From Pseudomonadales bacterium (GTDB taxonomy: Bacteria > Pseudomonadota > Gammaproteobacteria > Pseudomonadales > UBA7434), in contig JABDNS010000016.1 in the NCBI GenBank assembly GCA_013043705.1, positions 10,739 to 74,738 of the forward strand: 64,000 nt of DNA, written 5' to 3'. Shown piece by piece: positions 30,160-58,071 of the stretch (position 1 is its first letter; each line of letters opens with the position of its first letter). The position numbers and the translations under genes are program-made. A model generated the notes under the pieces. That model searched no databases. It saw nothing but the letters and a program-made list of their open reading frames with translations, and had not been told where the DNA came from.

Positions 30160-30177
30160 GGGGACAGTTTACTTTTT
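30160..30177 (+). repeat. REP singlet (GGGGACAGTTTACTTTTT)
   Basis: Direct copy of the left arm, 3 nt upstream of the hairpin at 30181. Confidence 0.85.
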
Positions 30178-30180
30178 CCA

Positions 30181-30237
30181 GGGGACAGTTTACTTTTACT
30201 GAGCGACGCAGTCGCTCAGTAAAAGTAAACTGTCCCC
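30181..30237. repeat. REP hairpin (REPIN-like), T-type arms, perfect 27-bp stem, loop gca
   Basis: ggggacagtttacttttactgagcgac-gca-gtcgctcagtaaaagtaaactgtcccc. Confidence 0.95.
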
Positions 30238-30262
30238 GAGGTTTTAAAAAAGGAGAGCTACC

Positions 30263-30841
30263 ATGGCAAGGATCGCCAGGCTGGTACTACCCGGCCACCC
30301 GCATCACATTACCCAGCGCGGTAATCGCCGCCAGACTACTTTTTTCAATGCAGCAGATTACCGCGCCTACATTGCGTTGGTAGCCCGCGGTGCAGAAGCC
30401 GCAGAAGTGGGGGTGCTCGCATATTGCCTGATGCCCAACCACGTACATTTCATTGTCGTGCCACAGCGCAAGAACAGTCTCGCGGCATTGTTTAGCGAAG
30501 CGCATCGTCGCTACACGCGCCGTATCAATGAGCGTGAGAAATGGTGTGGTCATCTGTGGCAGGCGCGCTTTCACTCGGCGGCACTGGACGAGCAGCACTT
30601 ACTGGCGGCAGCGCGCTATGTTGAGCTAAACCCGGTGCGTGCGACCATGTGCCAGCAGCCACAAGAATGGCCGTGGTCAAGCGCGCGAGCGCACTTGGCG
30701 GGGATCAATGATGCGCTGGTAGATGTGGCGCCGATGCTCGGACGCGTTAACAATTGGCGAGAATATCTTGGTGCGGAAGTGCCTGAACAGCATATTGAGG
30801 CGATAAGGCGCAATACTCGCAGTGGAAGGTCGTTTGTGTAG
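30263..30841 (+). CDS. REP-associated tyrosine transposase (RAYT; IS200/IS605-like Y1 transposase family)
   Basis: 192 aa. HUH motif in LMPNHVHFIVVP and catalytic-Tyr helix motif AARYVELNPVRA. AGGAG lies 8 nt upstream of the ATG. Flanked by REP hairpins. Confidence 0.9.
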   Translation: MARIARLVLPGHPHHITQRGNRRQTTFFNAADYRAYIALVARGAEAAEVGVLAYCLMPNHVHFIVVPQRKNSLAALFSEAHRRYTRRINEREKWCGHLWQARFHSAALDEQHLLAAARYVELNPVRATMCQQPQEWPWSSARAHLAGINDALVDVAPMLGRVNNWREYLGAEVPEQHIEAIRRNTRSGRSFV

Positions 30842-30847
30842 AGCATA

Positions 30848-30900
30848 GGGGACAGCTTACTTTTATAATCGCTCTGCGATTATAAAAGTAAGCTGTCCCC
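30848..30900. repeat. REP hairpin, C-type arms, perfect 25-bp stem, loop tct
   Basis: ggggacagcttacttttataatcgc-tct-gcgattataaaagtaagctgtcccc. Confidence 0.95.
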
Positions 30901-30923
30901 GTGGTTCTGCGGTTGTTTTGGGG

Positions 30924-31964
30924 TTACATTTGCGCGGTGGGTGTGCTGGCCGATAGCGCACGCTCTTCGTCGTCCATCTCGGCTTCAATGTCGGCGAACA
31001 GTGGCGTGCTTAGGTAACGTTCCCCCGTATCGGGCAACATGCAAAGAATGTTGCTGCCGTCCTCGGCTTTTTCTGCCACTTCCAATGCGCCAGCAAAAGT
31101 GCCGCCGGCGCTAATGCCTACAAAAATACCTTCCTGTTGCGCGAGTTCGCGCGAGCAATCTAGTGCCGCTTCGTTTTGAATGGTAAGAATGCGGTCGATA
31201 CCGCCGGCCTGGCGCGCATCGCTTAACAGCTTGGAGATAAAATCCGGCGTCCAGCCCTGCATGGGGTGCGGCTTGAATGCCGGGTGAGATTCAGCGGCGG
31301 AGCCATCTTCGTTTTGCTTTTGCACGACGCCGCTATCGAGCAGGTTGGCTTCGGCCGGTTCGCACACGACAATGCGCGTTTTGGGGCTTTGCTCGCGCAA
31401 TACTTTCGCAACACCTTTCAAGGTGCCGCCGGTGCCGTAACCGGTGACCCAGTAATCCAGTGGGTCGTCGGCAAAGGCTTGAATGATTTCCGGGCCAGTG
31501 GTGCGTGCATGCATCTCGGCGTTTGCCTCATTCTCGAATTGCCTTGCCAGGAACCAGCCATTTGCCTCGGCGAGTTCGCGTGCCTTGGCAACCATTCCGG
31601 TGCCTTTTAACGGTGCGGGTGTTAACACTACCCTAGCGCCGAGGAAGCGCATCAATTTTCGACGTTCAACGCTGAAGCTCTCGGCCATGGTTAACACCAA
31701 TGGGTAACCTTTTTGCGCGCAAACCATGGCAAGCCCAATGCCGGTATTACCGCTGGTGGCTTCTACGACGGTCTGGCCGGGTTCCAGCTCTCCACTTTTT
31801 TCGGCCGCTTCTATAACCCCTAGCGCCAGCCGGTCTTTTACCGAGCCCAGAGGATTGAAAGCCTCGATTTTCACGAACATATTCACGTGAGGGGGTGCTA
31901 GGCGGTTGATTCTCACCACCGGCGTGTTGCCGATGGTGTGCAAGATATTGGGAACGGGTTGCAT
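30924..31964 (-). CDS. cysK: Cysteine synthase family PLP enzyme (CysK/CysM-like, long form)
   Basis: PLP-lysine motif NPLGSVKDR, TSGNTGIGLA and the GISAGG phosphate loop. 346 aa, with an internal insertion and a C-terminal tail relative to the roughly 320-aa CysK. Confidence 0.85.
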   Translation of the reverse strand: MQPVPNILHTIGNTPVVRINRLAPPHVNMFVKIEAFNPLGSVKDRLALGVIEAAEKSGELEPGQTVVEATSGNTGIGLAMVCAQKGYPLVLTMAESFSVERRKLMRFLGARVVLTPAPLKGTGMVAKARELAEANGWFLARQFENEANAEMHARTTGPEIIQAFADDPLDYWVTGYGTGGTLKGVAKVLREQSPKTRIVVCEPAEANLLDSGVVQKQNEDGSAAESHPAFKPHPMQGWTPDFISKLLSDARQAGGIDRILTIQNEAALDCSRELAQQEGIFVGISAGGTFAGALEVAEKAEDGSNILCMLPDTGERYLSTPLFADIEAEMDDEERALSASTPTAQM

Positions 31965-31989
31965 GGTGATTGCCTCCGGTGAAAACCAC

Positions 31990-32007
31990 GGGGACAGTTT
32001 ACCTTTT
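31990..32007 (+). repeat. REP singlet (GGGGACAGTTTACCTTTT)
   Basis: Left-arm-like copy, 22 nt upstream of the hairpin at 32030. Confidence 0.8.
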
Positions 32008-32029
32008 TTGAAACCAGGGGGGAACCAAC

Positions 32030-32085
32030 GGGACAGCTTACTTTTGCTGTGCGGCAGAGCCGCTCAGGAAAAGTAAGCTGTCCCC
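32030..32085. repeat. REP hairpin, C-type arms, core with 2 mismatches, loop aga
   Basis: cgggacagcttacttttgctgtgcggc-aga-gccgctcaggaaaagtaagctgtcccc. It lies in the divergent cysK-like/ispG promoter region. Confidence 0.9.
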
Positions 32086-32119
32086 AAGCTGTGCTTAGGG
32101 TGTAAAATGCGCGCCCTGT

Positions 32120-33370
32120 ATGAGTATTTCTGAAGCTATTCCACCCGCCTCCAACAACGCACGCCACGCGGTCGACGTGGGCGGTGTTATCGTGGGTGGC
32201 GACGCGCCGGTGGTGGTGCAGTCGATGACCAACACTGACACCGCCGACATTGAGGGCACCACCGCGCAGATTATCGAGCTGGCCGATGCCGGCTCCGAGC
32301 TGGTGCGCATTACGGTAAACAATAACGAGGCCGCCGCGGCAGTGCCGCACATTGCCGAGCGCCTGCAGATTCGCAATGTGCGCGTGCCGATAGTGGGCGA
32401 CTTTCATTTTAACGGCCATAAACTTTTAGCCGAGCATCCGGCCTGTGCAGAAACGCTGGATAAATATCGCATTAATCCGGGCAACGTTGGTCGCGGCGCA
32501 AAAAAAGACAAACAGTTTGCCGAGATGATCGAGTTTGCCTGTCGCTACAACAAACCGGTTCGCATTGGTGTTAACTGGGGCAGCCTCGACCAGGCCTTGT
32601 TGGCTGAGCTTTTAGACGACAACGCAAAACTGCCCGAGCCATTGCCGCTAGACGAAATGATGCGTCGTGCGGTAATTCACTCTGCGCTGCAAAGCGCCGC
32701 GCAAGCCGAACAGCTGGGCTTGCCCGCGAACAAAATAATTATTTCCTGCAAGACTAGCAAAGTGCAAGACCTGGTTACCATTTACCAGCGCCTTGCCGAG
32801 CAGAGTCATTATGCCTTGCACCTTGGCCTTACCGAAGCGGGCATGGGTAGCAAGGGTATTGTTGCCTCCACTGCCGCGCTGTCGGTGTTATTACAGCAAG
32901 GCATTGGCGATACGATAAGAATTTCGCTTACACCTGAGCCCGGCGGTAGCCGCAGCAAGGAAGTGCAGGTGGCGCAAGAAATATTGCAGAGCATGGGCCT
33001 GCGCGCGTTCACGCCGATGGTCATAGCCTGCCCGGGCTGTGGCCGCACTACCAGCACCTACTTCCAGCAGTTGGCCGAAGACATCCAGGCTTATCTTCGC
33101 GAACAGATGCCGCACTGGCGCAACAGCCATCCGGGCGTGGAACATATGAACGTGGCGGTAATGGGCTGTGTAGTCAACGGCCCTGGCGAATCCAAGCACG
33201 CCAATATCGGCATTAGCTTGCCAGGTACGGGAGAGCGGCCAGTGGCGCCGGTGTATATCGATGGGCAGAAGGACGTAACGCTTAAAGGCGACGATATTGC
33301 CGGTGAATTCAAGGCGCTGGTGGATAGCTACGTCGAGCGCAACTACCCGGCTGCCCCGGCCCGCGCCTGA
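32120..33370 (+). CDS. ispG: 4-hydroxy-3-methylbut-2-en-1-yl diphosphate synthase (MEP pathway)
   Basis: [15 protein letters not shown]-terminal motif and [4Fe-4S] Cys ligands (ACPGCGRT ... [10 protein letters not shown]). Confidence 0.93.
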
Positions 33371-33522
33371 GCCCTGGCCGAGTGTGTTTCTGGCGCGCAT
33401 TGCAGTTTGTTTAAAAATTCGACGATTGCAGCCGCACCACCAAAAACCTATAATCGCGCACCTTTTTTTGTCAGGCCAGAAAGTCCTTTCTGGCTCAATC
33501 GTTCCCGAATCCGGAGATTTTA

Positions 33523-33951
33523 ATGGGCATCGAACGCACGCTATCTATTGTTAAACCCGACGCTGTAGGCAAAAACGTTATTGGCGAAATTTACTCGCGA
33601 TTCGAGAAGGCGGGGCTGAGTATTGCCGCAGCGCGTATGATGCATATGGATGCGGCGGTAGCGGGCGGCTTTTACGCCGAACATGAAGGCAGGCCGTTTT
33701 TTAATGATTTGATTGCGTTTATGACCTCCGGGCCGGTGATGGTGCAGGTGCTGGAAGGCGAGTCTGCGATTGCGCGCAACCGCGAAATAATGGGCGCTAC
33801 GAACCCTCAAGAAGCCGGTAAAGGCACGATTCGAGCTGACTTCGCCGAGTCGATAGATGCCAACGCTGTACACGGTTCGGATTCACCTGCATCGGCTGCG
33901 CGCGAAATCGCGTATTTCTTTGGCGACGATGAAATTTACTCACGCAAGTAG
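33523..33951 (+). CDS. ndk: Nucleoside diphosphate kinase
   Basis: [15 protein letters not shown] start and active-site NAVHGSDS. 142 aa. Confidence 0.96.
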
Positions 33952-34083
33952 GCGGGCCGGTGTTTACTGCTCGGCTGTTGCTCCGCTTGCCTGGTGCTGC
34001 TGTTGCAATTTGCTGAGTTGGGGAACCAATTTGGCTGGCCAACCCACTAAGCTATTCGTTTACTAACAATAACAGGCAACTTT

Positions 34084-35277
34084 ATGCCCACAACTGCAGT
34101 AAACAACAGGACCAACCTGTTAGGCAAAACCGAAGCGCAGTTGCGGGACTACTTTGTATCGCTCGGCGAAAAACCCTTTCGTGCCAAGCAGGTTTTAAAG
34201 TGGATTCACCAGGCCGGCATCAGCGACTTTGCTGCAATGACCGACCTGAGTGTGGCGCTGCGCGAAAAGCTTGCTAATGTTGCTGAAATATCTGCGCCCG
34301 ACATCGTAAGCCAGCGTGATTCCAAAGATGGCACTCGCAAATGGGTGCTGCGAGTAAGCGGCGGTAGCTGCGTTGAAACCGTTTATATTCCAGAGGCTGA
34401 CCGCGGCACGCTTTGCGTAAGCTCGCAAGTGGGCTGCTCGCTTGACTGCAGTTTTTGCGCCACCGGTAAACAGGGTTTTATGCGCGACCTGGGCGCGGCC
34501 GAAATCATTGGCCAGTTGTGGCTGGCCAAACATAGCTTCAATACCTATGACGCAAGCCGCGAACTAGCCGATGGTGAGCACGGCAAGATCACCAACGTGG
34601 TGATGATGGGTATGGGTGAGCCGCTACTCAATTTCGACAACGTGGTTAGCGCAATGAACCTGATGATGGATGATAACGCGCACGGTCTGTCGAAGCGGCG
34701 GGTAACCTTGAGCACATCCGGCGTTGTTCCGATGCTGGATAAGTTAAGCGAAGCGAGCGACTGTGCGCTGGCAGTTTCACTTCACGCGCCGAACGATGAA
34801 CTGCGCAATGAGCTCGTGCCTATCAACAAAAAATACCCGATTGCCATGCTAATGGATTCGGCCCAGCGTTATATGGATGCAGTGGGCGGCAACAAGCGCG
34901 TCATCACTATTGAATATACACTCATCGACCAGGTTAACGATTCGTTGCAGCTTGCGCAGCAGCTGGCGCAGCTACTCAAAAATGTGCCATGCAAAATTAA
35001 CCTGATCCCGTTTAATCCGTTTCCACTCTCCGATTACCGCCGCCCGAGTAACAATCGCATTCACGCCTTCCAGCGCGTGCTGCGCGAAGCCGGGCACATT
35101 GCGCATATCCGGACTACCCGTGGCGAGGATATCGACGCAGCGTGCGGGCAGTTAGCCGGTGAAGTGCTCGATCGAACAAGGCGCAGCGAGCGTTATCGCC
35201 AGGCGCAGGGCAACAGCGAAGGCGCCGGGCCGGCCGGCGCGGCGACAGCCGAACCACATATTTTTGCCAGGGGTTAG
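34084..35277 (+). CDS. rlmN: 23S rRNA/tRNA A2503/A37 C2-methyltransferase RlmN (radical SAM)
   Basis: Radical-SAM cluster motif [11 protein letters not shown]. Conserved neighbourhood after ndk. Confidence 0.93.
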
Positions 35278-35371
35278 TATGAATTTGCCGCACATTGCGC
35301 AGGTCTTCACCAGTTGCACACGCCTTGCGCAAGCCGTGGCCAAGCGGCTAAAGCCGCGTGGCGCGGTGCAA

Positions 35372-36178: not shown

Positions 36179-36223
36179 GCTGCTGCTGCGCGGCATCGGG
36201 CGAAAACGAGTAATCGAGAAACG

Positions 36224-37504: not shown

Positions 37505-37617
37505 CTGCTCGCCTACAATCCCGCCTCGCGGCTTGATCGCCGCATTTTTCACAGCGCCTTAGATGTGCGCTATACGTTCACTCTGCCAGTAGGGTACCAG
37601 CGCACGCCGGGCCGATC

Positions 37618-39666: not shown

Positions 39667-40865
39667 TGGTAAATGTGTTCACTACTACGGGGCGCCATGC
39701 GGTGCCCCGTTTTTTGTCGATACCAGGCGTACTATGCGTGCTGCTATTATTAGTCGCGGGCTGTGCCTCCACGCCCGAAGAGCGAGAGCAAGCGGGTAAA
39801 GCGCTCAAACTTCCTGACTTCGAGCGCCGTGTGCGGCTTGATTCAAGTTGGCGCCGTGACATCGGCAAGGGCCAGGGTGGCTTTTACAATCGACTGGCGC
39901 CATCTACTGATGACGCCGGTATATGCGTGGCCAGCATTGAAGGCAAGCTTGGCTGCTATACCGGGCAGGGCAAAAAGAGCTGGCGTAAAAAACTCGGCCA
40001 CGCTTTGTCGGCGGGCGCCGGAATTGCCGCTGATTTGGTGCTTGTTGCCAGCAGTGACGGTGAAGTTATTGCGCTGTCGCGTGAAAACGGGGATGAGCGC
40101 TGGCGCCGCGACCTCGGCGGTGAAGTGCTCGCGCCGCCGCAGGGCGATGCAGGCGTTGTAGTGGTACAAACTGCGGATGGCAGGCTTACCGGCCTGGCAG
40201 CGACTGACGGCAAGAAATTGTGGCAGCACAAAAACGATGAGCCGATCCTGACCCTGCGCGGTACTGCAACCCCGGTTGTTGCCGATGGCATTGTTTACAC
40301 GGGCTTTGCATCGGGCAAGCTGGTTGCTATCGACCTGGAAACAGGTAGCTTGCAGTGGGACCAGCTGGTTGCGTTAGCCAGCGGTACTGCCGAAATAGAA
40401 AAGCTTGTTGATGTTGATGCTTCACCGCACGTTACCGAAGAGATCGTTTACGCAACAAGCTTTAACGGCAACCTGTTTGCATTTGCCCGCGCCAACGGCC
40501 GCGCGCTGTGGCGCTTTCCATCATCATCCTATCGTGAAGTTGATGAGGGATTTGGGCATGTATATATGGCTGATGAAAAAGGGCGAGTTTATTCAATCAA
40601 CGCGCGCGATGGCGAACAGCGTTGGGAGCAGTCGGCATTTGTCAATCGCGAATTAAGTTCGCCTGTTGTATTTAGTGGCTACCTCGTTATTGGCGATGAC
40701 GACGGCTACCTGCACGTGCTCTCGCAGATTGATGGCAGTGTTGTCGGTCGTGCGCGAATTGACGGCTCTGGCGTGCGTGCGCCGATGCGCGTAGTAGAAG
40801 ACCAACTCATTGTTTACAGCAATGCTGGCAAGCTCGCCGCGTACACCTTGCGCGCCGTCGATTAA
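39666..40865 (+). CDS. bamB: Outer membrane protein assembly factor BamB (PQQ-like beta-propeller lipoprotein)
   Basis: Lipobox LLVAGC, repeated propeller blades (G.L.A....G...W) and conserved synteny. Confidence 0.88.
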   Translation: MVNVFTTTGRHAVPRFLSIPGVLCVLLLLVAGCASTPEEREQAGKALKLPDFERRVRLDSSWRRDIGKGQGGFYNRLAPSTDDAGICVASIEGKLGCYTGQGKKSWRKKLGHALSAGAGIAADLVLVASSDGEVIALSRENGDERWRRDLGGEVLAPPQGDAGVVVVQTADGRLTGLAATDGKKLWQHKNDEPILTLRGTATPVVADGIVYTGFASGKLVAIDLETGSLQWDQLVALASGTAEIEKLVDVDASPHVTEEIVYATSFNGNLFAFARANGRALWRFPSSSYREVDEGFGHVYMADEKGRVYSINARDGEQRWEQSAFVNRELSSPVVFSGYLVIGDDDGYLHVLSQIDGSVVGRARIDGSGVRAPMRVVEDQLIVYSNAGKLAAYTLRAVD

Positions 40866-40871
40866 AACCTC

Positions 40872-40923
40872 GGGGACAGTTTACTTTTGCCAGGCGCTGC
40901 TGGACGAAAGTAAACTGTCCCCC
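40872..40923. repeat. REP hairpin, T-type arms, core ccag/ctgg with one bulge
   Basis: ggggacagtttacttttgccaggcgctgctggacgaaagtaaactgtccccc. It starts 6 nt after the bamB stop. Confidence 0.9.
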
Positions 40924-42385: not shown

Positions 42386-42391
42386 GCGGCG

Positions 42392-45717: not shown

Positions 45718-46887
45718 TCAATCCCGGCGCAGTTTGTCCGATACGGCAATAGGCGTAGGAAAGTTGAAAATAACGATATAGGTCGAAATCAAAAACGTCA
45801 GGATCGCAGTGGCCTGGATAAGATGCGAAGCCTCTTTGCCAATTAACAGCGTGCTGGTTGCCACGTAGGCAATTAGCAGTGAAAACTCGCTGTTCTGTCC
45901 CAGCCGGAATCCCACACTCCACGACAGCGCGCGTCGCTCGCGCGAAGCGCGCAGCAAACCGCGAAACGCCAGTGGTTTTACCGCAATCATTGCGGCGGTT
46001 AGCAGCAGTGTCGGCAGTAGTATATCGGCCAGCATGCTGGTGTCGAAGCGCGCGCCCAGCGCAAAGAAAAATAGCACCAGGAAAAAATCGCGCAGTGGCC
46101 TTAGGTTCAGCGCAATAAACTGCGAGATCGGGCTGGTGGCTAGCACAATTCCCGCGGTAAACGCTCCGATTTCAGCTGACAAACCGGCTAGCGCCGCCAA
46201 TTCAGCCATGCCCAGGCACCAGCCAAGCGCCAGCAAAAATATATACTCGTGAAAGCGGTCGAAGCGCGCTATTAGCGCTAGCAACACATAGCGTACAAAC
46301 AGCAGCGCGCCAACAGCCAGCAGCGGCAGTGCCAGCATTGCACGCAATAGCATGGCGTAATCAAATTGCCCACCACTGCCGCTGAGCAAAACAATCAATA
46401 CAAAAATTGCGATCAAATCCTGGATCAATAACAGGCCGACAATCAACTCGCCGGTATGTTTGTGGTGTAGTACAGTAGTTGGTAGCAGCTTGATGCTGAT
46501 AATGGTGCTGGAGAACATCATCGCAACACCAATGATAATGCACTCGTTGCTAGTGAAGCCAAAGCCGAAGGCGATCGCCGCGCCAATCGCAAAAAACAGC
46601 AATGAGCTGGCTATCGCAACCACGCTGGCCTGCTTGGCCACCGAGCGCAATGACTGCGGCTGCATATCGAGCCCCAGTAGAAATAGCAAAAAGATAATGC
46701 CGATATGGCCTACATCTTCAAGCAGGCCAACGTTGTTGATATAGCTTGCGCCATAGGGCCCTATCAATGCACCCAGCGCAATGTAGGCGATCAACATGGG
46801 CTGGCGCGTGTACAGCGCAGCAGTGGCCAGCACCGCCGCACCCGAGAAGATAAGGAAGAAGGAAAAGGTTAGCGAGCCGCCGTCCAT
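45718..46887 (-). CDS. Cation:proton antiporter (CPA2/Kef-type membrane domain only)
   Basis: 389-aa polytopic ORF with the Na_H_Exchanger-like pattern (GPYG..., EFSLLIA). No KTN/RCK domain. Confidence 0.82.
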   Translation of the reverse strand: MDGGSLTFSFFLIFSGAAVLATAALYTRQPMLIAYIALGALIGPYGASYINNVGLLEDVGHIGIIFLLFLLGLDMQPQSLRSVAKQASVVAIASSLLFFAIGAAIAFGFGFTSNECIIIGVAMMFSSTIISIKLLPTTVLHHKHTGELIVGLLLIQDLIAIFVLIVLLSGSGGQFDYAMLLRAMLALPLLAVGALLFVRYVLLALIARFDRFHEYIFLLALGWCLGMAELAALAGLSAEIGAFTAGIVLATSPISQFIALNLRPLRDFFLVLFFFALGARFDTSMLADILLPTLLLTAAMIAVKPLAFRGLLRASRERRALSWSVGFRLGQNSEFSLLIAYVATSTLLIGKEASHLIQATAILTFLISTYIVIFNFPTPIAVSDKLRRD

Positions 46888-49538: not shown

Positions 49539-49555
49539 CACTCGCAAGCCAAGCA

Positions 49556-50037: not shown

Positions 50038-50074
50038 GCCCCAACCTAGTTGGGGCATTTTTTTTGCTTTTTTT
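50038..50074 (+). terminator. Strong rho-independent terminator, plus-strand sense, with no called upstream gene
   Basis: gccccaac-cta-gttggggc (8-bp stem) followed by aTTTTTTTTgcTTTTTTT. In the minus sense the hairpin is followed by aaacatgg. Confidence 0.75.
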
Positions 50075-50111
50075 GCGGCTACTGGTGGATTGCAGGATAG
50101 ATATTTATTGT

Positions 50112-50354
50112 TTAAGCGGCGGCGCTGGCCAGTACCATACGCACTATCCAGGCGACGCCGAACACAAATAGCACCGTAAAGATGATGCCCGAAGCAATAT
50201 AGATATAAACACCATTGCGCGAGTCAAAATCCTTCTGGCGATTGGCTTCACTTTGCACACCGAAGGCAGCTGCCACTGTGCTTTTGATAATTTGCCATGC
50301 ACGGTTATGCGGCGGAGCTGGTTCGTCCAGGTTTTTCTTTTCAGGGTGATTCAT
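50112..50354 (-). CDS. DUF2970-like small membrane protein
   Basis: 80 aa with a polar N-terminus and a single C-terminal TM helix (IYIASGIIFTVLFVFGVAWIV). Starts 35 nt downstream of the metH stop. Confidence 0.65.
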   Translation of the reverse strand: MNHPEKKNLDEPAPPHNRAWQIIKSTVAAAFGVQSEANRQKDFDSRNGVYIYIASGIIFTVLFVFGVAWIVRMVLASAAA

Positions 50355-50389
50355 TTTGCAATGCTTCCTGTCACTTATTTGGTAAATTG

Positions 50390-53300
50390 TTAGTCCAGTA
50401 TCGGGCGCAATAGTTTGGCCAGCGCATCAGGCGGCTGACCTTTTCGTGCGGCGATTGCCTCCAGCTGGTCCTGGCCAATTTTTCGAATACCGAAGTAGCA
50501 GCTGTCGGGATGGGAAAAATAGAGTCCGCTAACGGAAGCTGCCGGATGCATGGCAAAGTTTTCGGTTAATACAACGCCAAGCTTTTCATGCGCTTCCAGT
50601 ATTTTAAAAATTGATGCTTTTTCGCTGTGGTCCGGGCAAGCAGGGTAGCCCGGCGCAGGCCTGATACCTCGATACTTTTCTTTTACCATATCTTCGTTGC
50701 TTAGCTGCTCGTCCTCCGCGTAGCCCCAGTATTCGGTGCGCACGCGCATGTGCAAATGCTCGGCCAGGCTTTCCGCCAGGCGGTCGGCGAGGGCTTTCAT
50801 CATAATGCTGCTGTAGTCGTCACCTGCTTCGGCAAATGCTTCCGGGCTTTGCTTGCCTGGTGTCTGGTCGATCGAAACTACGAATGCACCCACGTAGTCC
50901 ACCACGTTGCTATTCAGCGGTGCAACGAAATCAGCCAACGACAAGTTCGGTTTGCCAGGCGTTAACTCGGTTTGCTGGCGCAACTGGTGTAGCTTGAGCA
51001 GCGGTTCGCTGCGGTGCTCATCGGCAAATAGCTGGATGTCATCGTCGTCGACCTGGTTGGCCGGCCAAAAACCGAATGCCGCCTTGGCGGTGAGCGACTG
51101 TTCATTAACAATTTGTTCTAGCATTGCCTGCGCGTCGTCGTAGAGTTGCTTGGCAGCTTCTCCCACCGATTTATCTTCAAAGATTTTCGGGTACTTGCCC
51201 ACTAGCCCCCAGGTAATAAAAAATGGTGTCCAGTCGATCGTGCCGATCAGCTTGTGCAGCGGGTAGTCGAGCAGCCATTGTGCGCCAAGCACGCGTGGCA
51301 CCGGCGCTTGATAGTTAAACCAGTCAAAATCGGGTTTGTTGGCAACCGCCTGTGCATAGCTAAGTAGCTTGCTGCGCGGCGTTTTATTCGCGTGGCGCTC
51401 ACGAATCTTTTCGTAAGTCGTTTTGGTTTCGTCGATAAAAGCCGTTTTTAGCTCGTCGCTTACCAATGTGCTGGCAACCGCAACGCTGCGCGAAGCGTCT
51501 GGTACGTACACCACCTGCTCATTGGCGTAGGCGGGTTCAATTTTTACCGCCGTATGCGCCTTTGATGTGGTTGCGCCACCAATGAGTAGCGGCACTTTAA
51601 AATCCTGGCGTTGCATTTCGCTGGCAACGTAAACCATTTCATCCAGTGAAGGTGTGATTAAGCCACTCAGCCCAATCATGTCGACGCTTTCTTCTCGCGC
51701 GGTTTGCAGGATTTTTTCAGCCGGCACCATTACACCAAGATCAATAACTTCGAAGTTGTTGCACTGTAATACTACGCCGACAATATTTTTACCGATATCG
51801 TGAACGTCGCCTTTCACCGTGGCCATCAGGATTTTGCCGTTGGTTTTTGAACCCTCCTGCTTTTCCTCTTCGATATAGGGTTGCAAATAGGCTACTGCCT
51901 GTTTCATTACGCGCGCGCTTTTTACCACTTGGGGTAAAAACATTTTGCCCTGGCCGAACAGGTCGCCAACCACGTTCATGCCATCCATCAACGGCCCTTC
52001 AATTACCTGGATGGGCCGGTCGAATTGCTGGCGCGCCTCTTCGGCATCTTCCACAATAAACGCATTGATGCCCTTCACCAATGCGTGCTCTAGCCGCTTG
52101 GTGACCGGCTCTTCGCGCCATTCAAGCGTCTCGACGGCTTTGCTGCTGCCGTCGCCTTTGTACTGGTCGGCAATATCCAGTAAGCGCTCGGTGGCATCGT
52201 CGCGACGGTTTAATATCACGTCCTCTACGCAGTCGCGCAATTCCACGGGAAGCTCGTCGTAGATGGCTAGCTGCCCGGCGTTGACAATGCCCATGTCCAT
52301 GCCGGCATTGATGGCGTGATACAAAAACACCGAGTGAATCGCTTCGCGCACCGGGTTGTTACCGCGGAATGAAAACGATACGTTACTTACGCCGCCCGAT
52401 ACTTTTGCATGTGGCAGGTTTTGTTTGATCCAGCGCGTGGCTTCAATAAAGTCTACCGCGTAGTTGTTGTGCTCTTCAATGCCCGTTGCTACGGCAAAAA
52501 TATTCGGGTCGAAGATGATATCTTGCGGCGCAAAGCCAGCCGTTTCGGTAAGTAGCTTGTAAGAGCGCGCACAGATGTCTGTTTTGCGTTGTGCTGTATC
52601 GGCCTGGCCATCTTCATCGAAGGCCATCACTACCACGGCGGCGCCGTAGCGCTTGCAAAGTTTCGCTTGTTCGAGAAAGGGCGCTTCGCCTTCTTTCAAG
52701 CTAATTGAATTGACAATACCTTTGCCCTGCACGCATTTCAGGCCCGTTTCAATCACCTCCCACTTCGATGAGTCGAGCATAATGGGTACGCGCGAAATCT
52801 CGGGTTCCGAGGCAATCAGGTTGAGGAAAGTGTGCATGGCGTTGTGCGCGTCCAGCATGCCTTCGTCCATGTTGATATCGATTACCTGCGCGCCGTTTTC
52901 CACTTGCTCACTCGCCACTTCGAGCGCGGTGTTGTAGTCGCCTTCCAGTACCAGTCGTTTGAATTTTGCCGAACCGGTGACGTTGCAGCGCTCGCCAATA
53001 TTCACGAACAGGCTGTCTTCGGCAATGGAAAATGGCTCCAGGCCGGATAGTCGCAGCGCATGGCGCGGAGCGGGCAGGGCGCGTGGCGCACCACTGCTGG
53101 CTGCCTTGGCGATCGCGCTAATGTGCTCGGGGGTAGTGCCACAACAGCCACCGAGTGCGTTCAGGAAACCGCGGCTGGCAAAGTCGGCCAGCTCCTGCTG
53201 CATGATTTCCGGCGTTTCATCGTACTCGCCAAAGGCATTCGGCAGGCCGGCATTAAAGTGACCACTGAAATAACAGTCGGCTGCGTTTGCCAGCTCTTCA

Positions 53301-54088
53301 ACGAAGGGCCTGATTTCGCTGAAGCGTCGCCCGCAGTTAACGCCAATAATCAGCGGCTCGGCGTGCGCTACCGAGTGCCAAAAAGCAGTGGGGGTTTGGC
53401 CCGACAACAGGCGCCCGCTAAGGTCGGGGAAGGTCACCGAAATCATCAACGGCAAGCGTTGGTCGGGGTTTGCATCAAAAAAGGCTTGCACCGCAAAGAT
53501 CGCCGCTTTGGCGTTCAGCGTGTCGAAAATGGTTTCGACCAGGATAAGGTCTACGTTGCCCTCGACCAATGCAGCGACGGCTTCGCTGTAGTCATCCACC
53601 AGGTCGTCAAAGTTGATATTGCGCGCAGCGGGGTCATTAACATCCGGAGAGATGGACGCGGTGCGCGGGGTAGGGCCAAGGACACCCGCCACGAAACGGG
53701 GCTTATCTGGCGTTTTGGCGCTGTACTCGTCGGCCACTTTGCGCGCCAGCCTGGCGCCGGCCAGGTTAATGTCGTGGGCAGCTTCTTGCAGGTCGTAGTC
53801 ACCCTGCGCAACGCGGGTGCCGTTGAAGGTATTGGTTTCGAGAATGTCGGCGCCAGCATCCAGGTAGGCGCGATGAATTTCTTCAATGACATCGGGACGG
53901 CTGATATTCAACAGGTCGTTGTTGCCTGCCAGGTTTTTGTGATGCGACTGGAAACGCTCGCCACGAAAGTCGTCCTCGGCGAGCTTATAGCCCTGGATCA
54001 TGGAGCCCATAGCGCCATCAATAACGAGAATGCGTTCCGCTAAAGCATCGCGCAGGCGCTGGGTAGTATTGGTGTTCGAAGCGGTCAT
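50390..54088 (-). CDS. metH: Cobalamin-dependent methionine synthase
   Basis: 1232 aa from [12 protein letters not shown]. Contains Hcy-binding, pterin-binding, B12-binding ([10 protein letters not shown] = DxHxxG) and AdoMet activation domains. The upstream 68 codons of the track ORF were rejected. Confidence 0.96.
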
Positions 54089-54390
54089 ACGGAGGTTTTT
54101 CGCAAAAAAAGTAGCGTCTGTACTTGAACAGCATCGCTGCAATGAGCTGGCCTGACAGTGTATCAAAGCAGTGGCTGAAACTCGCGGCAAATACGGGCTT
54201 TCATTTGGTACTTTTCGCGGCGGGCCTGGATGCTGGCAACGCCGCAGTTTGTTCTGCGAGTAAGGCGTGGTTTGTGATGTCAATGTCGCCAACTTTTCGA
54301 CTTATTTGTGGTCGAACTTTGTTGACGCTGGAGTCGAGATTTGCCGCTCAATTGCATAGAATAGGCGGATCGCCAAACAGGATACCCAAC

Positions 54391-55026
54391 ATGACCGACA
54401 CGCCCTCCATTTTTGCTGCCGCGGATACGCAAGCGCGCGAGTATGTTGAAATTGAATTGACCGACTCGGCCCAGGAATACCTGAAAGGACTGCTGGAATC
54501 GCAGGATGAAGATGTAATTGGTATTCGCGTGTTCATTAACGACCAGGGTACGCCGCGTGCCGAAACCTGCATTGCCTACTGCAGGCAAGAGGATGCCGGC
54601 GACGAAAGCCTGGTACGAGAATACGCGGGCTTTACCGCTTACTTCGATGCGGCAAGTTGGCCCTATCTCGATGCGGCCAAAATCGATTTCGCCGAAGACC
54701 GCATGGGCGGCCAGCTCACGATAAAGGCGCCCAACTCTAAGATGCCCCAGGTGCGGGCCGACAGTCCTCTGCAAGACCGAATTAACTATTTGCTTTACAC
54801 CGAGGTGAACCCCTCTCTGGCCTCGCACGGCGGGGAAGTTTCCTTGATGCTTATCGACGACGACAACTTTGCAGTGTTGCAGTTTGGCGGCGGATGCCAG
54901 GGCTGCGCGGCGGTGGATGCCACCTTAAAAGAGGGCGTGGAAAAAACCCTCAAGCAACACCTGCCCGACTTGGCCGGCGTCAAAGACATCACCGACCACA
55001 CCGACCGCAGCAACGCCTATTACTAA
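54391..55026 (+). CDS. nfuA: Fe/S biogenesis protein NfuA
   Basis: Degenerate A-type N-domain plus a Nfu C-domain with GGGCQGCAAVD (CxxC). Start at ATG 54391; the longer track ORF was rejected. Confidence 0.88.
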   Translation: MTDTPSIFAAADTQAREYVEIELTDSAQEYLKGLLESQDEDVIGIRVFINDQGTPRAETCIAYCRQEDAGDESLVREYAGFTAYFDAASWPYLDAAKIDFAEDRMGGQLTIKAPNSKMPQVRADSPLQDRINYLLYTEVNPSLASHGGEVSLMLIDDDNFAVLQFGGGCQGCAAVDATLKEGVEKTLKQHLPDLAGVKDITDHTDRSNAYY

Positions 55027-55027
55027 C

Positions 55028-55076
55028 GAGGACAGTTTACTTTTGCGCGTTAAGCGCGCAAAAGTAAACTGTCCCC
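55028..55076. repeat. REP hairpin, T-type arms (left arm gagg), core gcgcg/cgcgc
   Basis: gaggacagtttacttttgcgcgttaagcgcgcaaaagtaaactgtcccc. It begins 1 nt after the nfuA stop codon. Confidence 0.92.
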
Positions 55077-55097
55077 GAGATTGCGCCCGGTGTTGCC

Positions 55098-55736
55098 ATG
55101 CCTCTCCGCTACCTTGCCCTGATAGTTGCGGTGCTGCCCTTCATTGCGGCAAATTTGTGCTACCTGGTTTCGGCGTGGCAGGGACACGTCGAGTGGTGCA
55201 TTCCCTACCTGCATGGCTGTACGTCAATTAGCGCTGCTGCGCGTCATGGCAGCGCCTTTTACCTTTTCAAAATTTTGATGTTTCCGTCAATTGTGCTGAT
55301 GGTGATTTACTGGCGTGCGCACTGTCGCTGGCTGGCTGCTGCTGGAGATCCGGCGGCAGGCATCAGGCGTGCGATTATGCTCATGGGTGTTGTCGCGGCG
55401 CTGGGTCTTGCGCTTTATACCTCGGTTCTGGGGCTGGTTGGTGACCTTTACTTCTTGCAGCGCAGAATTGGTATCGTGCTGTATTTTGCCCTGACATTTT
55501 TGGCACAGCTGCTGCTGACCTACCGCTTGTCAACGCTGGTCTCGGCCGCGGCGAGGGCTGCCTATCACGCCAAATTCCTGCTTATTTGCCTGATGTGGGG
55601 TTTAGGCCTGTTGCACCTGGTTTTTGAGGTCACGCGGCCTGAATTCGATGCGATCGATGACATCATAGAATGGAATTTCGCGCTGCTGGCCACACTGTTT
55701 TATGCCAGTAGTTACTTTCTCTGGAAAAAGGAATAA
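55098..55736 (+). CDS. Hypothetical integral membrane protein (5-6 TM)
   Basis: 212-aa hydrophobic ORF. No family recognised. Confidence 0.55.
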   Translation: MPLRYLALIVAVLPFIAANLCYLVSAWQGHVEWCIPYLHGCTSISAAARHGSAFYLFKILMFPSIVLMVIYWRAHCRWLAAAGDPAAGIRRAIMLMGVVAALGLALYTSVLGLVGDLYFLQRRIGIVLYFALTFLAQLLLTYRLSTLVSAAARAAYHAKFLLICLMWGLGLLHLVFEVTRPEFDAIDDIIEWNFALLATLFYASSYFLWKKE

Positions 55737-55858
55737 CTTGCTGGAGACGATGGGCCGATGAACGAGTAGCGAGCGTTTTCGGCTGGCGCTTGCCTGTTCC
55801 GTAAGTACTGCGCCTTATGCAAGCCCGCATTGCAGGTATTTGATAGAATCGCGCGCCC

Positions 55859-58030
55859 ATGAAAGCACTTCCTCACCAGCCGGCGACGGCGCCACCCCTG
55901 TTTGGCTACCAGAAATACTGGGCCGAATGCTACGGCACCGCGCCATTTTTGCCGATGTCGCGCGCGGAAATGGACGAGTTGGGCTGGGACAGCTGCGACA
56001 TTATCATTGTTTCAGGCGACGCCTATGTCGATCACCCCAGCTTTGGCATGGCGGTTATCGGCCGTCTGCTGGAGGCGCAGGGTTTTCGCGTTGGCCTGAT
56101 TTGCCAGCCCGACTGGAAAAGTGAAGCGCCCTTTAAGGCGCTGGGTAAACCCAATTTATTCTACGGCGTAACCGGCGGCAACATGGACTCCATGATCAAC
56201 CGCTATACCGCCGACAAACGCATGCGCTCCGACGATGCCTACACTGCAGGCGGGCAGGGAGGTGCGCGCCCCGATCGCTGCGTAATCGTGTACAGCCAGC
56301 GATGCAAACAGGCGTTTCCGGATGTGCCGGTTGTCATCGGGGGAATTGAAGCGAGCTTGCGGCGTATTGCGCAGTACGACTACTGGTCGGACGAGGTGCG
56401 TCGTTCGGTATTGGTGGATGCCACCGCTGACGTTCTGTTATACGGCAATGCCGAGCGCGCGATCGTTGAAGTGGCGCATGCTTTCGCGCAGGGTAAGGAT
56501 AGCCAGGGCCTCGACGATATTCGCGGTGCCACCTTGATTCGGCAAGCTGTGCCAGAAGGCTGGACCGAGATCGATTCCAGCCGAATTGATTGGCCTAATA
56601 AAATTGATTCGCTGCCCAACCCGTATAACTATGGCAACCAGCAGACGAGTTGCGAATCAAAGGGAGCGTCGCCAGCACAGCCCGACACGCGGTTTTCAGC
56701 TTCAATGCAGGAAGGTTTGCATGCGGAGCCGGTAAGAATTATTCCGATGCCACTAGCTACACGCGAGCTAGCAGGTGCCGACCAAAACAAGATCTGTGTG
56801 CGATTGCCATCATTTGAAAAAGTCAGTAAAGACGCGGTGTTATACGCGCACGCCTCGCGCGTGCTGCACCAAGAGAGCAATCCGCACAATGCCAGGGCGT
56901 TGGTGCAAAAGCATGGCCATCGCGAAGTATGGGTAACCCGGCCGCCTATCCCGCTTTCTACCGAAGAGCTGGATGCTGTGTTCGAGCTACCCTACCAGCG
57001 TGTTCCGCATCCCGCCTATGGTGAGGCAAAAATTCCCGCCTACGAGATGATAAAAACCTCTGTCAACATCATGCGCGGCTGCTTTGGTGGTTGTACGTTT
57101 TGTTCGATCACAGAGCACGAGGGCAGGGTTATACAGAGCCGCTCCGAAGCATCGGTATTGCGCGAAGTAGAACAGATTCGCGACAAAGTGCCCGGTTTCA
57201 CGGGCGCGATAAGCGACCTCGGCGGCCCCACCGCCAATATGTACCAGCTTAATTGCAACGATGATGTGGTGCAGGCTAACTGTCGCAGGCTTTCCTGTGT
57301 GCACCCCACTATTTGTAAAAATCTGGAAACCGACCACGCGCCGACCACGCGTTTGTATCGCAAGGCCAGGGCGCTACCGGGCATTAAGCGCATCTTGATC
57401 GCCTCGGGTCTGCGCTACGACCTGGCCGTGCTGGACGAAGAATACGTGAAGGAATTGGTTACCCATCATGTCGGCGGCTATTTAAAGATAGCGCCGGAAC
57501 ACAGCGAAGATGCCACGCTTGCAAAAATGATGAAGCCCGGCATGGGCAGTTACTACGCGTTCAAAAAACTTTTCGATAAGTACTCGAAGCAGGCGGGCAA
57601 AAAGCAGTATTTAATACCTTATTTTATTGCAGCGCACCCGGGTTGTACCGACGAGGAAATGCTGGCGTTGGCGCTGTGGTTAAAACAGAATGATTTTCGG
57701 GTAGACCAGGTGCAAACTTTTTACCCCTCGCCGATGGCGCTTGCCACCGCCATGTACCACTCCGGGCGAAACCCGCTCAAAAAGCTGCGCTACAAACGGG
57801 GTGAAAAAGTTTTTGCCGCAAAGAGTATTGAACAGCGACGATTGCAGAAGGCATTCCTCCGCTATCATGATGAGAAAAACTGGGGGTATCTGCGCGAGTC
57901 ACTGATTCGCATGAATCGTCGCGACTTGATTGGCGATGGCGACAAGCAACTGGTGCCCGATGCCCATCGCAGCCCAGGACGTAGCCGTCGACCCAAACAA
58001 AAAGCCCGCGGTGGGCAATGGAGTAAATAA
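55859..58030 (+). CDS. ygiQ: YgiQ-family radical SAM protein (UPF0313)
   Basis: 723 aa with radical-SAM motif CFGGCTFCS, the conserved N-terminal [12 protein letters not shown]...[13 protein letters not shown] and a basic C-terminal tail. Confidence 0.88.
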
Positions 58031-58071
58031 GGGACAGCTTACTTTTCGCGTAGCGAAAAGTAAGCTGTCCC
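58031..58071. repeat. REP hairpin, C-type arms, 19-bp stem, loop gta
   Basis: gggacagcttacttttcgc-gta-gcgaaaagtaagctgtccc. It starts immediately after the ygiQ TAA. Confidence 0.92.

Follow-up and report, generated by a model that had tools for sequence, protein, structure and literature searches.

Tyrosine transposases flanked by TIRs with the motif GGGGWSAS, and the dispersal of these TIRs as singles, dimers and clusters, were described by Di Nocera, De Gregorio & Rocco 2013 (PMC3733652). Such TIRYTs form subclass 2.1 of TnpA_Y1 in the scheme of Quentin et al. 2018 (PMC6006769). In REPINs conservation is lower in the spacer than in the REPs, and it is the length of the spacer and its capacity to form a hairpin that matter, with compensatory changes being common (Bertels & Rainey 2011, PMC3116915). 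A previous sequence-only reading of the DNA analysed here had taken the classical REPIN model to be one with similar spacers, which was mistaken, as a variable spacer was already stated in that paper. For TnpA_REP of E. coli, the lower stem of the REP is specific, and the upper stem and loop are needed as structure only (Corneloup et al. 2021, PMC8266576). Insertion into single-stranded DNA by Y1 transposases is established for IS608 (cited in PMC6006769). Hairpins are reported to arise, and to be preserved, through template switching (Mönttinen & Löytynoja 2022, PMC8794818).

The window, a stretch of 64,000 nt from a Pseudomonadales bacterium, carries a set of hairpins that show an element of a known kind with unusual clarity and do not make up a new kind. 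They are probably dispersed, non-autonomous copies of the terminal repeats of a RAYT, the cores of which are inherited, drift, and are made symmetric again by template switching together with selection for the hairpin.

Hairpins and transposase gene of the window

Seven palindromes share the arm GGGGACAGYTTACTTTT, and the positions previously given for them (30181, 30848, 32030, 40872, 45655, 55028 and 58031) were all borne out. The arm pattern GGGACAGYTTACYTTT has 16 matches in the window (0.07 expected from shuffles), all within nt 30161–58071. Besides the palindromes there are two lone left arms (30160–30176 and 31990–32006), each preceded by AAAACCAC. The features are as follows (coordinates, strand, description).

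30150..30176, plus strand, lone extended left arm TTAAAACCAC+GGGGACAGTTTACTTTT, likely the terminal repeat at the outer left end of the transposase unit
30181..30237, no strand, palindrome 1, T-type arms, core ACTGAGCGAC, loop GCA, 27 perfect pairs
30263..30841, plus strand, RAYT / TIRYT-type Y1 HUH transposase gene (192 aa), lying between palindromes 1 and 2
30848..30906, no strand, palindrome 2, C-type arms, core ATAATCGC, loop TCT, 25 perfect pairs, then the tag GTGGTT
31981..32006, plus strand, the other lone left arm GAAAACCAC+GGGGACAGTTTACCTTT, within the spacer that separates a PALP-enzyme gene from the divergent ispG
32029..32085, no strand, palindrome 3, C-type arms, core GCTGTGCGGC / GCCGCTCAGG with two mismatches, loop AGA
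40862..40922, no strand, palindrome 4, left tag GATTAAAACCTC, bulged stem, 6-nt loop
45655..45711, no strand, palindrome 5, core TATAAATTGC, apex GCGAAGC, T·T and T·G mismatches
55027..55077, no strand, palindrome 6, core GCGCG, 5-nt loop TTAAG, one arm mismatch
58029..58073, no strand, palindrome 7, C-type arms, core CGC, loop GTA

The ORF at nt 30263–30841 matches Pfam Y1_Tnp (E 2e-12), NCBIfam NF047646 REP_Tyr_transpos (83.6 bits, cut-off 80) and PDB 4ER8 TnpA_REP (RYVELNPV aligned to DYIYINPV), and the catalytic HUH and Tyr motifs were found. These matches identify it as a RAYT gene, and its position between the first two hairpins bears out the REP-type assignment made earlier. An alignment with six homologues revealed that about 28 aa of their C-terminal tail are missing, and the protein may be inactive; palindrome 2 occupies the place of this tail and of the right terminal repeat. 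In four other genomes, each RAYT homologue (54–64% identity) is flanked by a single left arm on its upstream side and a single right arm on its downstream side, the latter at or over the RAYT stop codon in L040 (bin89), L045 (Halieaceae), L146 and L147-149. This arrangement identifies the arm as the terminal inverted repeat of the transposase, and by its motif (GGGGWSAS) it fits the published TIRYT/TIRtron class. A single arm, unlike classical REPs, is not self-complementary, and in the transposase unit itself the two arms are about 700 nt apart, two points that count against the reading given above. The MaoC-like gene upstream has its stop codon (30151–30153) inside the lone arm at 30150..30176; the 27 nt of this arm are 96% complementary to nt 30221–30247, and it pairs also with the right arm plus GTGGTT at 30884–30906. 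The extended tag AAAACCNC is one-sided in at least four of the seven copies, and palindrome 1 carries its tag (GAGGTTTTAA) on the right side only.

Folded as single-stranded DNA, the seven elements gave −20.5 to −31.7 kcal/mol, far below their own shuffles (z −7.9 to −14.1), with values of −31.7 kcal/mol (z −13.8) for palindrome 1 and −28.0 kcal/mol (z −14.1) for palindrome 2. Identical outer stems of 16–17 bp had been reported; the arm is indeed shared, but is not strictly identical. At the Y position C replaces T in three copies (30848, 32030 and 58031), mirrored in both arms each time, and there is one right-arm mismatch each in 40872 and 45655 and one left-arm mismatch in 55028. The inner segments, described earlier as self-paired throughout, pair perfectly only in 30181, 30848 and 58031, while the other four are imperfect or have larger loops: the core of 32030 contains two mismatches, T·T and T·G occur in 45655, 40872 combines a bulge with a 6-nt loop, and the loop of 55028 is 5 nt unless a T·G pair is counted. 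A Watson-Crick-closed triloop is thus found in five of the seven copies rather than six.

All copies are extragenic, six starting no more than about 30 nt past a stop codon and five within 8 nt. The bamB stop codon (40863–40865) lies inside the left tag of palindrome 4, palindrome 5 sits between the convergent trpS and Na+/H+ exchanger genes, palindrome 6 starts 2 nt past the nfuA stop codon, and palindrome 7 is flanked by the convergent genes ygiQ and mdh.

Core similarity, mirrored copies and orthologous sites

The cores do not, as had been stated, differ completely. With both in the same orientation, the cores of 30181 and 32030 agree at 16 of 21 positions, with one compensated pair (A·T to G·C), and their arms show a mirrored change from T·A to C·G. 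The summed pairwise similarity of the cores is 115, compared with 93 ± 5 for palindrome-preserving shuffles, none of which (0/400) reached that value. A shared GC apex could account for part of the excess. An AT-rich outer core with a GC apex is common to 30848, 45655 and a sister-species copy (L143). As core subfamilies cross the arm types (30181 is T-type, 32030 C-type), recurrent mirrored changes or an exchange of arms between copies are required. Since the comparison in the window's lineage covers about 72 kb of sequence, the inheritance of cores leans there on one clear pair and weaker groupings. In other lineages the core TCGGGC is common to copies with loops GTT, CTC or AAA, and likewise xTCC-xAA-GGAx; cores are common to copies within a Hoeflea-like set and within a Ga0114932 set, and the long-interior forms of Mesorhizobium, Woeseiaceae and other genomes share interiors within a genome. 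Judged from these alignments, some cores are evidently homologous between copies, and the proposal that each was made afresh does not hold.

These arm pairs are found in both Alpha- and Gammaproteobacteria, where their interiors are particular to the lineage. Palindromic cores are in excess across the family, 83% of 36 distinct short copies from many taxa having z < −2 against interior shuffles. Triloops are the commonest loop type (19 of 35 single-hairpin copies), and are closed by 5'-C·G-3' in 17 of the 19 and by G·C in none. Among arm variants of all taxa, 4 deviations are mirrored and 22 one-sided, so mirroring is not pervasive.

One natural mirror-copy polymorphism was found. In the sister MAGs L121 and L122, palindrome 3 carries an extra mirrored right half of 37 nt after ...CCCCAAGC, consisting of GGCTCTGCCGCACAGC, the right arm and AAGC. 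The insertion matches the left arm, core, loop and 3 nt exactly in reverse complement, with the loop inverted; its junction has AGC microhomology, and the two mismatches present in the resident right half are 'repaired' by it. Metagenome loci include nested L-L-R-R and L-L-L-R-R-R arrays in which unique spacers, and a derived arm variant as well, are mirrored; a derived truncation is shared by the middle arms of L139 on both sides. Palindromy runs outward into unrelated flanks in L143 and L130. The mirrored insertion and the nested arrays show that fold-back (template-switch) copying happens at these elements. The earlier suggestion of fold-back is upheld to this extent, but not as the birth of every palindrome, given the shared cores; it is best seen as keeping the halves alike, and not as generating elements from an arm and unique sequence.

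The bamB-der site, which in the window holds palindrome 4, is occupied in a sister species (Der 87% identical) by a perfect palindrome of 67 nt; its arm is the same, its core differs and its loop is 3 nt long, and this occupied site would argue for long residence of the element.

Origin and maintenance of the symmetric cores

Each hairpin would consist of a left and a right repeat, head to head around a few bases, an element comparable to a REPIN or to a MITE formed from the transposase unit minus its gene. The 16–17-nt arms would be the lower stem, held constant because the transposase is proposed to read them as a folded single strand. The core would be the upper stem, required as structure alone and for that reason, in this proposal, free to change in sequence and length. 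Cores would pass on together with the arms and then drift fast, while the complementarity of their halves may be kept partly by selection favouring stable hairpins whose triloop is closed by C·G, and also by replication template switching inside the hairpin, by which one half is written onto the other. Since a template switch perfects an imperfect inverted repeat, paired changes would arise in one step; single changes would become compensated pairs, with occasional inverted or tandem duplications of half-elements. The enzyme presumably reads the lower stem only, template switching is presumably the main symmetrising force, and the elements would seem to be still mobile.

Alternatively, and in our view unlikely, each palindrome was born on site by snap-back: starting from a lone arm and the unique host sequence beside it, the new strand would fold back with a minimal 3-nt loop, copy core and arm, and return to the template. 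Cores would then be captured local DNA and unrelated between copies, which is contradicted by the core common to 30181 and 32030 and by those shared in other lineages. The L121/L122 insertion is exactly such a product, lone tagged arms exist, palindrome 2 replaces about 28 RAYT codons as if the right terminal repeat and neighbouring bases had been mirrored, and outward palindromy (L143, L130) also agrees with it; the one-sided tag does too, but is equally typical of classical tagged REPs. Weak hints are the recurrence of GCTGTGC 2 nt past the right arm of 32030, and the resemblance of the 45655 and 32030 cores to sequence 100–250 nt away (16/19 and 14/16, P 0.01 and 0.04), but the nearby matches are post hoc and marginal. 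Empty orthologous bamB-der spacers resemble neither core (P 0.13–0.9), contrary to the derivation of the core from pre-existing local sequence that had been suggested.

Selection may instead act alone, with ordinary point mutations and indels in the core, and only long-hairpin copies surviving or being recopied. The E. coli enzyme requires upper stem and loop merely as structure, and mismatches or bulges in four of the seven copies are expected of intermediates. C·G-closed triloops and loops of the GNA type (GCA, GAA, GTA) are apexes that are thermodynamically favoured in DNA minihairpins. Perfectly symmetric length changes of 3–11 bp are, however, hard to obtain by independent indels, and neither the 37-nt mirrored insertion nor the nested arrays with mirrored spacers and the palindromy beyond the arms are explained, so that an origin free of any special mutational process is quite improbable.

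Still less probable is nested insertion, in which the element's preferred target is the single-stranded apex of a hairpin already in place, such as a terminator or a further copy. The insertion of Y1 transposases into single-stranded DNA (IS608) makes such target choice conceivable, and it would yield the arrays L138, L139 and L141 as well as the palindromes extended outward (L130, L143). Left unexplained are the variable inner cores and the L121/L122 right half, with its inverted loop and a core that follows the left and not the resident right half, and the truncation shared by both middle arms of L139 also speaks against it.

Host hairpins apart from transposition (intrinsic terminators, mRNA-stabilising stem-loops or binding sites of dimeric proteins) are very improbable: the positions after stop codons, the terminator-like pattern that 58031 alone of the seven fits (on both strands) and three non-Watson-Crick positions that are T·G on the transcribed strand would agree with them, but six of seven lack a T-run, the hairpins have no match in Rfam, RAYT genes are flanked by the same arms in five genomes, and a secondary RNA role, which is possible, would leave the origin of the elements unexplained.

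Comparison with known systems

The preferred reading, that of dispersed terminal-repeat copies, places the elements closest to TIRtrons/TIRYTs, which correspond approximately to TnpA_Y1 subclass 2.1 (PMC6006769) and RAYT group 1 (Bertels et al. 2017, PMC5581495). As in that group, a RAYT-like Y1 transposase has one terminal inverted repeat per side, the distance to the gene being similar, the repeat starts with GGGGWSAS (here GGGGACAG), and copies are dispersed as singles, dimers and clusters. The C-terminal HTH domain of subclass 2.1 was not detected in the RAYT, and placement in the subclass is not sequence-based. The dimers differ in being near-perfect hairpins with hypervariable, self-complementary cores and triloops, of which the accessible parts of the published accounts give no such description, and Quentin et al. 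found no REP-like structures in subclass 2.1 (PMC6006769).

In common with the REPIN-RAYT system (PMC3116915), two inverted RAYT-flanking repeats surround a spacer and are predicted to fold into a hairpin as a single strand, the repeats are better conserved than the spacer and compensatory changes are frequent, a single-copy RAYT lies among housekeeping genes, and copies persist at orthologous sites. Unlike REPINs, the repeat unit is not itself palindromic, the spacer is 9–23 nt as against the 71-bp register of SBW25, and the cores vary in length and sequence, with no GTAG tag. The E. coli REP/REPtron (TnpA_REP, PDB 4ER8) has an enzyme of the same superfamily and the same division of labour along the stem as is proposed here, but the present elements have neither a 5' GT[AG]G tag nor a conserved stem bulge, their arms are longer and AT-rich, and the protein is distant (E 5e-05 over about 95 residues).

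Quasipalindrome and short template-switch mutations, in the accessible parts of their descriptions (PMC8794818; E. coli, PMC7202029), likewise involve an inverted copy of a neighbouring sequence, microhomology at the switch point and return via a repeated arm, but they are a general mutational process and not a family of elements. What is particular here is template switching on a transposase-linked repeat, where it may be more frequent through the long perfect arms.

The repeat and its transposase

The seven palindromes of the sequence-only reading, named here by their start positions (30181, 30848, 32030, 40872, 45655, 55028 and 58031), are all present where it had placed them, as confirmed by direct reading, by an arm count against shuffled sequence and by folding of the single strand. 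The arm, i.e. the conserved outer 16-17 nt on either side (L, left; R, right), reads GGGGACAGTTTACTTTT and has no internal complementarity. Within the 64-kb window GGGACAGYTTACYTTT has 16 matches, where dinucleotide-preserving shuffles predict 0.07, and all are confined to nt 30161-58071. Folded as single-stranded DNA, the seven elements give energies of -20.5 to -31.7 kcal/mol (z -7.9 to -14.1). Three of the seven are perfect hairpins; two positions in each of 32030 and 45655 depart from Watson-Crick pairing, 40872 is bulged with a loop of 6 nt, and 55028 has a loop of 5 nt, or a smaller one if a T·G pair is counted. A 3-nt loop, previously ascribed to six copies, is found in five of the seven when Watson-Crick closure is required. 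One arm position is changed from T to C in three copies, each time mirrored across both arms. Two additional left arms (30160-30176 and 31990-32006), each directly 3' of AAAACCAC, stand alone without a local pairing partner.

All seven copies are extragenic, and six begin no more than about 30 nt after a stop codon (five of these within 8 nt). The surrounding genes are of the housekeeping type (ispG, hisS, bamB, der, trpS, nfuA, ygiQ and mdh), and the Der protein of this lineage, an uncultured gammaproteobacterium, shares about 67% identity with its counterparts in Halieaceae, Microbulbifer and Litorivivens. No direct repeats that could represent a target-site duplication flank any of the seven. 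Copies of this lineage were counted within about 72 kb of sequence, and the approximately 13.6 kb read rightward of the last copy held no more. The unrelated MaoC-like gene and bamB share the 3' end ...TCGATTAA (nt 30145-30159 and 40857-40871); as this sequence is part of the extended arm TCGATTAAAACCNCGGGG, which is conserved, both genes seem to take their last codon(s) and stop from the repeat.

An ORF between the first two hairpins matches Pfam Y1_Tnp (E 2e-12), NCBIfam REP_Tyr_transpos (83.6 bits, cut-off 80) and the E. coli TnpA_REP structure (PDB 4ER8), to which its HUH and Tyr/Asn motifs align, and is thus a REP-associated tyrosine transposase (RAYT). The transposase unit comprises:

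30263-30841 (+), RAYT gene
30150-30176 and 30884-30906, outer arm pair of the transposase unit

The catalytic motifs are intact. The protein stops about 28 residues short of its homologues, after ...TRSGRSFV (compared with the homologues P0124, P0136 and P0209 and those of loci L040 and L045), and does not have their basic tail of about 30 aa (...GRPxGxxxFxxxLExxTxRxLxxxKxGxK). In the Pfam search Y1_Tnp was the one domain detected, with no match for the C-terminal HTH-like domain of TnpA_Y1 subclass 2.1. Palindrome 30848 stands where the tail of the homologues runs into the right terminal repeat (nt 30839-30906).

Searching the compared loci with the window transposase (tblastn), together with look-ups of homologues, gave four more RAYT loci at 54-64% identity: L040 (Gammaproteobacteria bin89), L045 (Halieaceae WSDMB12), L146 and L147-149. 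In each, a single left arm, (C)GGGGACAGTTTAC..., precedes the start codon by 60-100 nt and a single right arm lies over the stop codon or just past it; the arm is therefore the terminal inverted repeat (TIR) of the transposase unit. Every window arm contains GGGGACAG, which fits the TIR motif GGGG[AT][CG]A[CG]. In the deltaproteobacterium NaphS2 (L016, nt 3811-4040), an arm copy (GGGGACAGCTTACTTTT) lies exactly where a Y1 paralogue, 31% identical to the window RAYT, is truncated; an intact paralogue is at nt 7607-7993. This case was left unused as evidence because the 16-mer match may be due to chance.

Distribution and orthologous sites

A single-arm scan with one genome per species gave at least 119 loci. 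About half of the matches listed are single chance matches in unrelated phyla. Among the matches listed, paired L...R arms occur in Alphaproteobacteria (Mesorhizobium, Hoeflea, Aquibium and Kumtagia) and in Gammaproteobacteria (Halieaceae, Woeseiaceae and several MAGs). Their interiors fall into lineage-specific classes: interiors shared between the copies of a genome are longest in Mesorhizobium (about 52 nt), followed by MAG MFD03551 (43 nt), two gammaproteobacterial MAGs (40 nt) and Woeseiaceae (32 nt), and those of Hoeflea, bin89 and the window lineage are short. Scanning metagenomes with both arms detected 15 loci. The viral scan returned 29 single matches and just two Mesorhizobium-type pairs, with no sign of a phage vector; two IMG/VR contigs labelled viral (L174, nt 672-778; L185, nt 2951-3057) carry the Mesorhizobium-type long-interior element, and could represent either prophage or host DNA assigned to the wrong bin. 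MAG contigs often end in or just past these palindromes (L158 is an example), and a garbled right arm 30 nt from another contig end (L156, nt 9442-9534) was taken as an assembly artefact. Copy numbers in MAGs are underestimates, as the repeats evidently break short-read assemblies.

A sister species (GCA_049665845.1), in which Der and YgiQ are each 87% identical to those of the window, carries in its bamB-der spacer a perfect 67-nt palindrome, GGTAAT-GGGGACAGTTTACTT-AATTAATTGGC-TAC-GCCAATTAATT-AAGTAAACTGTCCCC-ATTACC. The arm is that of the window, the core is different, the loop is 3 nt and the palindromy extends six bases further outward. Two relatives at 76-78% Der identity have empty bamB-der spacers of 31 and 50 nt, with neither a hairpin nor significant similarity to either core. 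The proposal that a core derives from a pre-existing local hairpin found no support at orthologous sites, a comparison that the large divergence keeps from being decisive. The empty spacer of the 78%-identity relative (L144, nt 9970-10000) contains a 9-mer, ACTGAGCGA, identical to the 30181 core (ACTGAGCGAC); this is probably coincidence, since the 9-mer lines up with a motif conserved in front of der (window sequence CAAAGAGCAATCA). The rough post hoc odds are about 0.02. When the window cores were compared with their own ±300-nt flanks, two marginal matches were found (P 0.01 and 0.04) and judged not decisive. The 32030 core agrees with a stretch of ispG at a distance of 250 nt (nt 32336-32351) in 14 of 16 positions, and the 45655 core with one of the exchanger gene at about 100 nt (nt 45818-45837) in 16 of 19; GCTGTGC, the start of the left 32030 core, recurs 2 nt past that element's right arm (nt 32086-32098). 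Such marginal matches could hint at templating from nearby sequence.

In the sister species a second repeat family, GGGGTCAGTGTAAAAATTATTTTTTG..., fills the spacers after nfuA and after ygiQ and the ortholog of the 45655 site, i.e. the spacers orthologous to window 45655, 55028 and 58031. It has 30-nt arms, GGGGTCAGTGTAAAAATTATTTTTTG(A/C)ACA, and interiors of 50-70 nt (L143, nt 8050-8180; L150, nt 6590-6630, 9610-9765 and 10085-10130). Its arm reads GGGGTCAG, and because this also fits GGGG[AT][CG]A[CG] the family presumably belongs to another transposase paralogue. The sister nfuA site also holds decayed copies of the first family and a lone first-family right arm. Neither family was found in the nfuA or ygiQ spacers of a relative with 82% identical YgiQ. 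A tandem repeat, (AGATAAC)n, follows ygiQ in a relative (L151, nt 7990-8060). The occupancy of orthologous sites indicates that these spacers are long-term habitats, in which arms stay constant while cores and flanks turn over.

Core variation and mirror copying

The cores of the window had been described as differing completely, a description that does not survive their comparison. Those of 30181 and 32030 match at 16 of 21 positions in the same orientation, and differ by one compensated pair (A·T to G·C) and two uncompensated changes in 32030; their arms differ by a mirrored T·A to C·G change. The best pairwise core score, 11, is attained by 1.5% of palindrome-preserving shuffles, and the summed pairwise similarity is 115 versus 93 ± 5, a total reached by none of 400 shuffles. 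In 30848, 45655 and the sister-species copy alike, the outer core is AT-rich and the apex GC; the shared GC apex may contribute part of the excess. Elsewhere, the Hoeflea-like set has the core TCGGGC in common and varies in the loop alone (GTT, CTC, AAA), and the cores in one marine metagenome take the form xTCC-xAA-GGAx; other lineages therefore copy the core along with the arms.

Across 36 distinct short copies, counts over which overstate the effective sample because the copies partly share ancestry, 83% fold with z < -2 relative to shuffles of the interior, and 73% of interior bases are paired versus 41% in the shuffles. A triloop is present in 19 of the 35 copies that form a single hairpin, including window 30181, 30848, 32030, 45655 and 58031, L143 and L131-L140, among others. 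It is closed by 5'-C·G-3' in 17 of the 19 and by G·C in none, and the commonest is GAA. Several are G-N-A loops (GCA, GAA, GTA), and GCGAAGC occurs inside 45655. C·G-closed triloops and G-N-A loops form the most stable apexes of DNA minihairpins, and this combination points to a single-stranded DNA form.

Three MAGs with an identical transposase provide a direct view of how such stems change. In L120, palindrome 32030 has the window form; in L121 and L122, which belong to different assemblies, 37 extra nt follow ...GTCCCCAAGC and consist of GGCTCTGCCGCACAGC + AAAAGTAAGCTGTCCCC + AAGC. Read in reverse complement, this block equals left arm + core + loop + GCC exactly; its loop is inverted (TCT for AGA), and it pairs perfectly with the left half at both sites that are mismatched in the resident right half. 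There is an AGC microhomology at its entry, and the 17-nt arm provides homology for the return, as a short replication template switch would predict. It is just as possible that the window form came later, by deletion between two 21-nt direct repeats; even so, the mirrored block must have arisen by inverted copying. The metagenome loci L138 and L141 read L-GGC-L-TTCC-TAA-GGAA-R-GCC-R, and L139 is a triple nested array in which mirroring extends to the unique spacers (AGAAAAATTA/TAATTTTTCT and AAAAAA/TTTTTT) and to an arm with a derived truncation; these arrays show the same mirror process on a larger scale. Four other loci (L140, L028, L100 and L101) contain direct tandem duplications of half-elements. 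Fold-back copying, put forward earlier from the seven window copies, does therefore occur at elements of this kind. Template switching is an established route by which perfect stems are created and maintained (PMC8794818).

In the reading preferred here, the arms would form the lower stem and would be read by the transposase, given that they are conserved beside RAYTs just 54-64% identical and by analogy with the E. coli system. The core would be free in sequence and constrained to pair. Cores would be inherited together with the arms and then drift, while two forces would hold the halves in agreement: selection that favours a stable apex, and template switches inside the hairpin.

The strongest alternative is that each palindrome was made de novo from one arm and local sequence. 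In its favour are the tag AAAACCNC, which is one-sided in at least four copies, the loss of about 28 C-terminal RAYT codons exactly at palindrome 30848, and the two cores that marginally match nearby sequence; as a general origin it is unlikely, because cores are shared between copies. A specific version, slightly more doubtful again, has the REP-type hairpins of TIR-flanked tyrosine transposases born and remodelled by hairpin-primed mirror synthesis: a tagged arm and adjoining host bases would be folded back and copied, possibly from a transposase nick at the tag/GGGG boundary, giving a new substrate with a captured host apex. Selection alone leaves the mirrored insertion and the nested arrays unexplained. 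Nested insertion into hairpin loops could account for the arrays, but not for the L121/L122 block, whose loop is inverted. That the hairpins serve the host purely as terminators does not hold for six of the seven, only 58031 having the GC-rich stem and T-run of an intrinsic terminator. A secondary role of the hairpins in RNA is possible: three non-Watson-Crick positions (in 40872, 45655 and 55028) are T·G on the transcribed strand of the upstream gene, i.e. U·G wobble in RNA, which is compatible with stem-loops that act in RNA, a function that has been suggested for GTAG REPs.

The locus records in nature how stems that are both long and perfect are kept up. Mirror copying is directly visible in one strain polymorphism and in several nested arrays, and two homologous copies show compensated changes beside others not yet compensated. 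Hairpin-primed mirror synthesis, if true, would give de novo REP formation a concrete mechanism, and would explain how an enzyme that needs single-stranded hairpins works with 'terminal inverted repeats'.

Relation to known repeat classes

Two further classes were dismissed. A MITE of a DDE transposon was ruled out by the missing target-site duplication and by the linked enzyme, which is Y1 and not DDE. Integron attC sites likewise have conserved ends and a variable palindromic centre, but there is no integrase, there are no R/L boxes, and a RAYT is linked. An Rfam search of the window at the gathering threshold matched tRNA alone (nt 2184-2267, minus strand, 53.6 bits, far from the repeats), so no described RNA family applies to the hairpins.

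As in REPtrons with classical REPs, a RAYT gene adjoins the window copies, but their 5' GT[AG]G tag is missing: no GTAG or CTAC adjoins any of the seven, the flanks being AAAACCNC, TCCA, CATA and others. In architecture they resemble REPINs, in that two inverted copies of a RAYT-flanking repeat and a spacer fold as one hairpin, and the spacer varies more than the repeats while compensatory change preserves the hairpin, as described by Bertels and Rainey (2011; PMC3116915); the difference is that a single window unit is not an imperfect palindrome. Since variable REPIN spacers and template switching have both been described already, the window case is extreme and unusually legible rather than a new principle.

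Since tyrosine (HUH) transposases use single strands in folded form as their substrate, the RAYTs flanked by TIRs were a puzzle: the survey of Quentin et al. (2018; PMC6006769), which equates the TIRYT class with TnpA_Y1 subclass 2.1 and RAYT group 1, reports no REP-like hairpins found for it. Di Nocera et al. (2013; PMC3733652) named TIR-flanked RAYT-like genes 'TIRYT/TIRtrons', with the common TIR motif GGGGWSAS and TIRs dispersed as singles, dimers and clusters. The window repeat matches this class: one terminal inverted repeat stands on each side of the gene in place of GTAG REPs, the motif fits, and the hairpins are accordingly inverted dimers of the TIR. Here the left 'terminal repeat' pairs with the right one, and dimers that form hairpins are dispersed in genomes of two proteobacterial classes, which suggests that the substrate is a hairpin of left and right repeat, linking TIRtrons to REPtrons.
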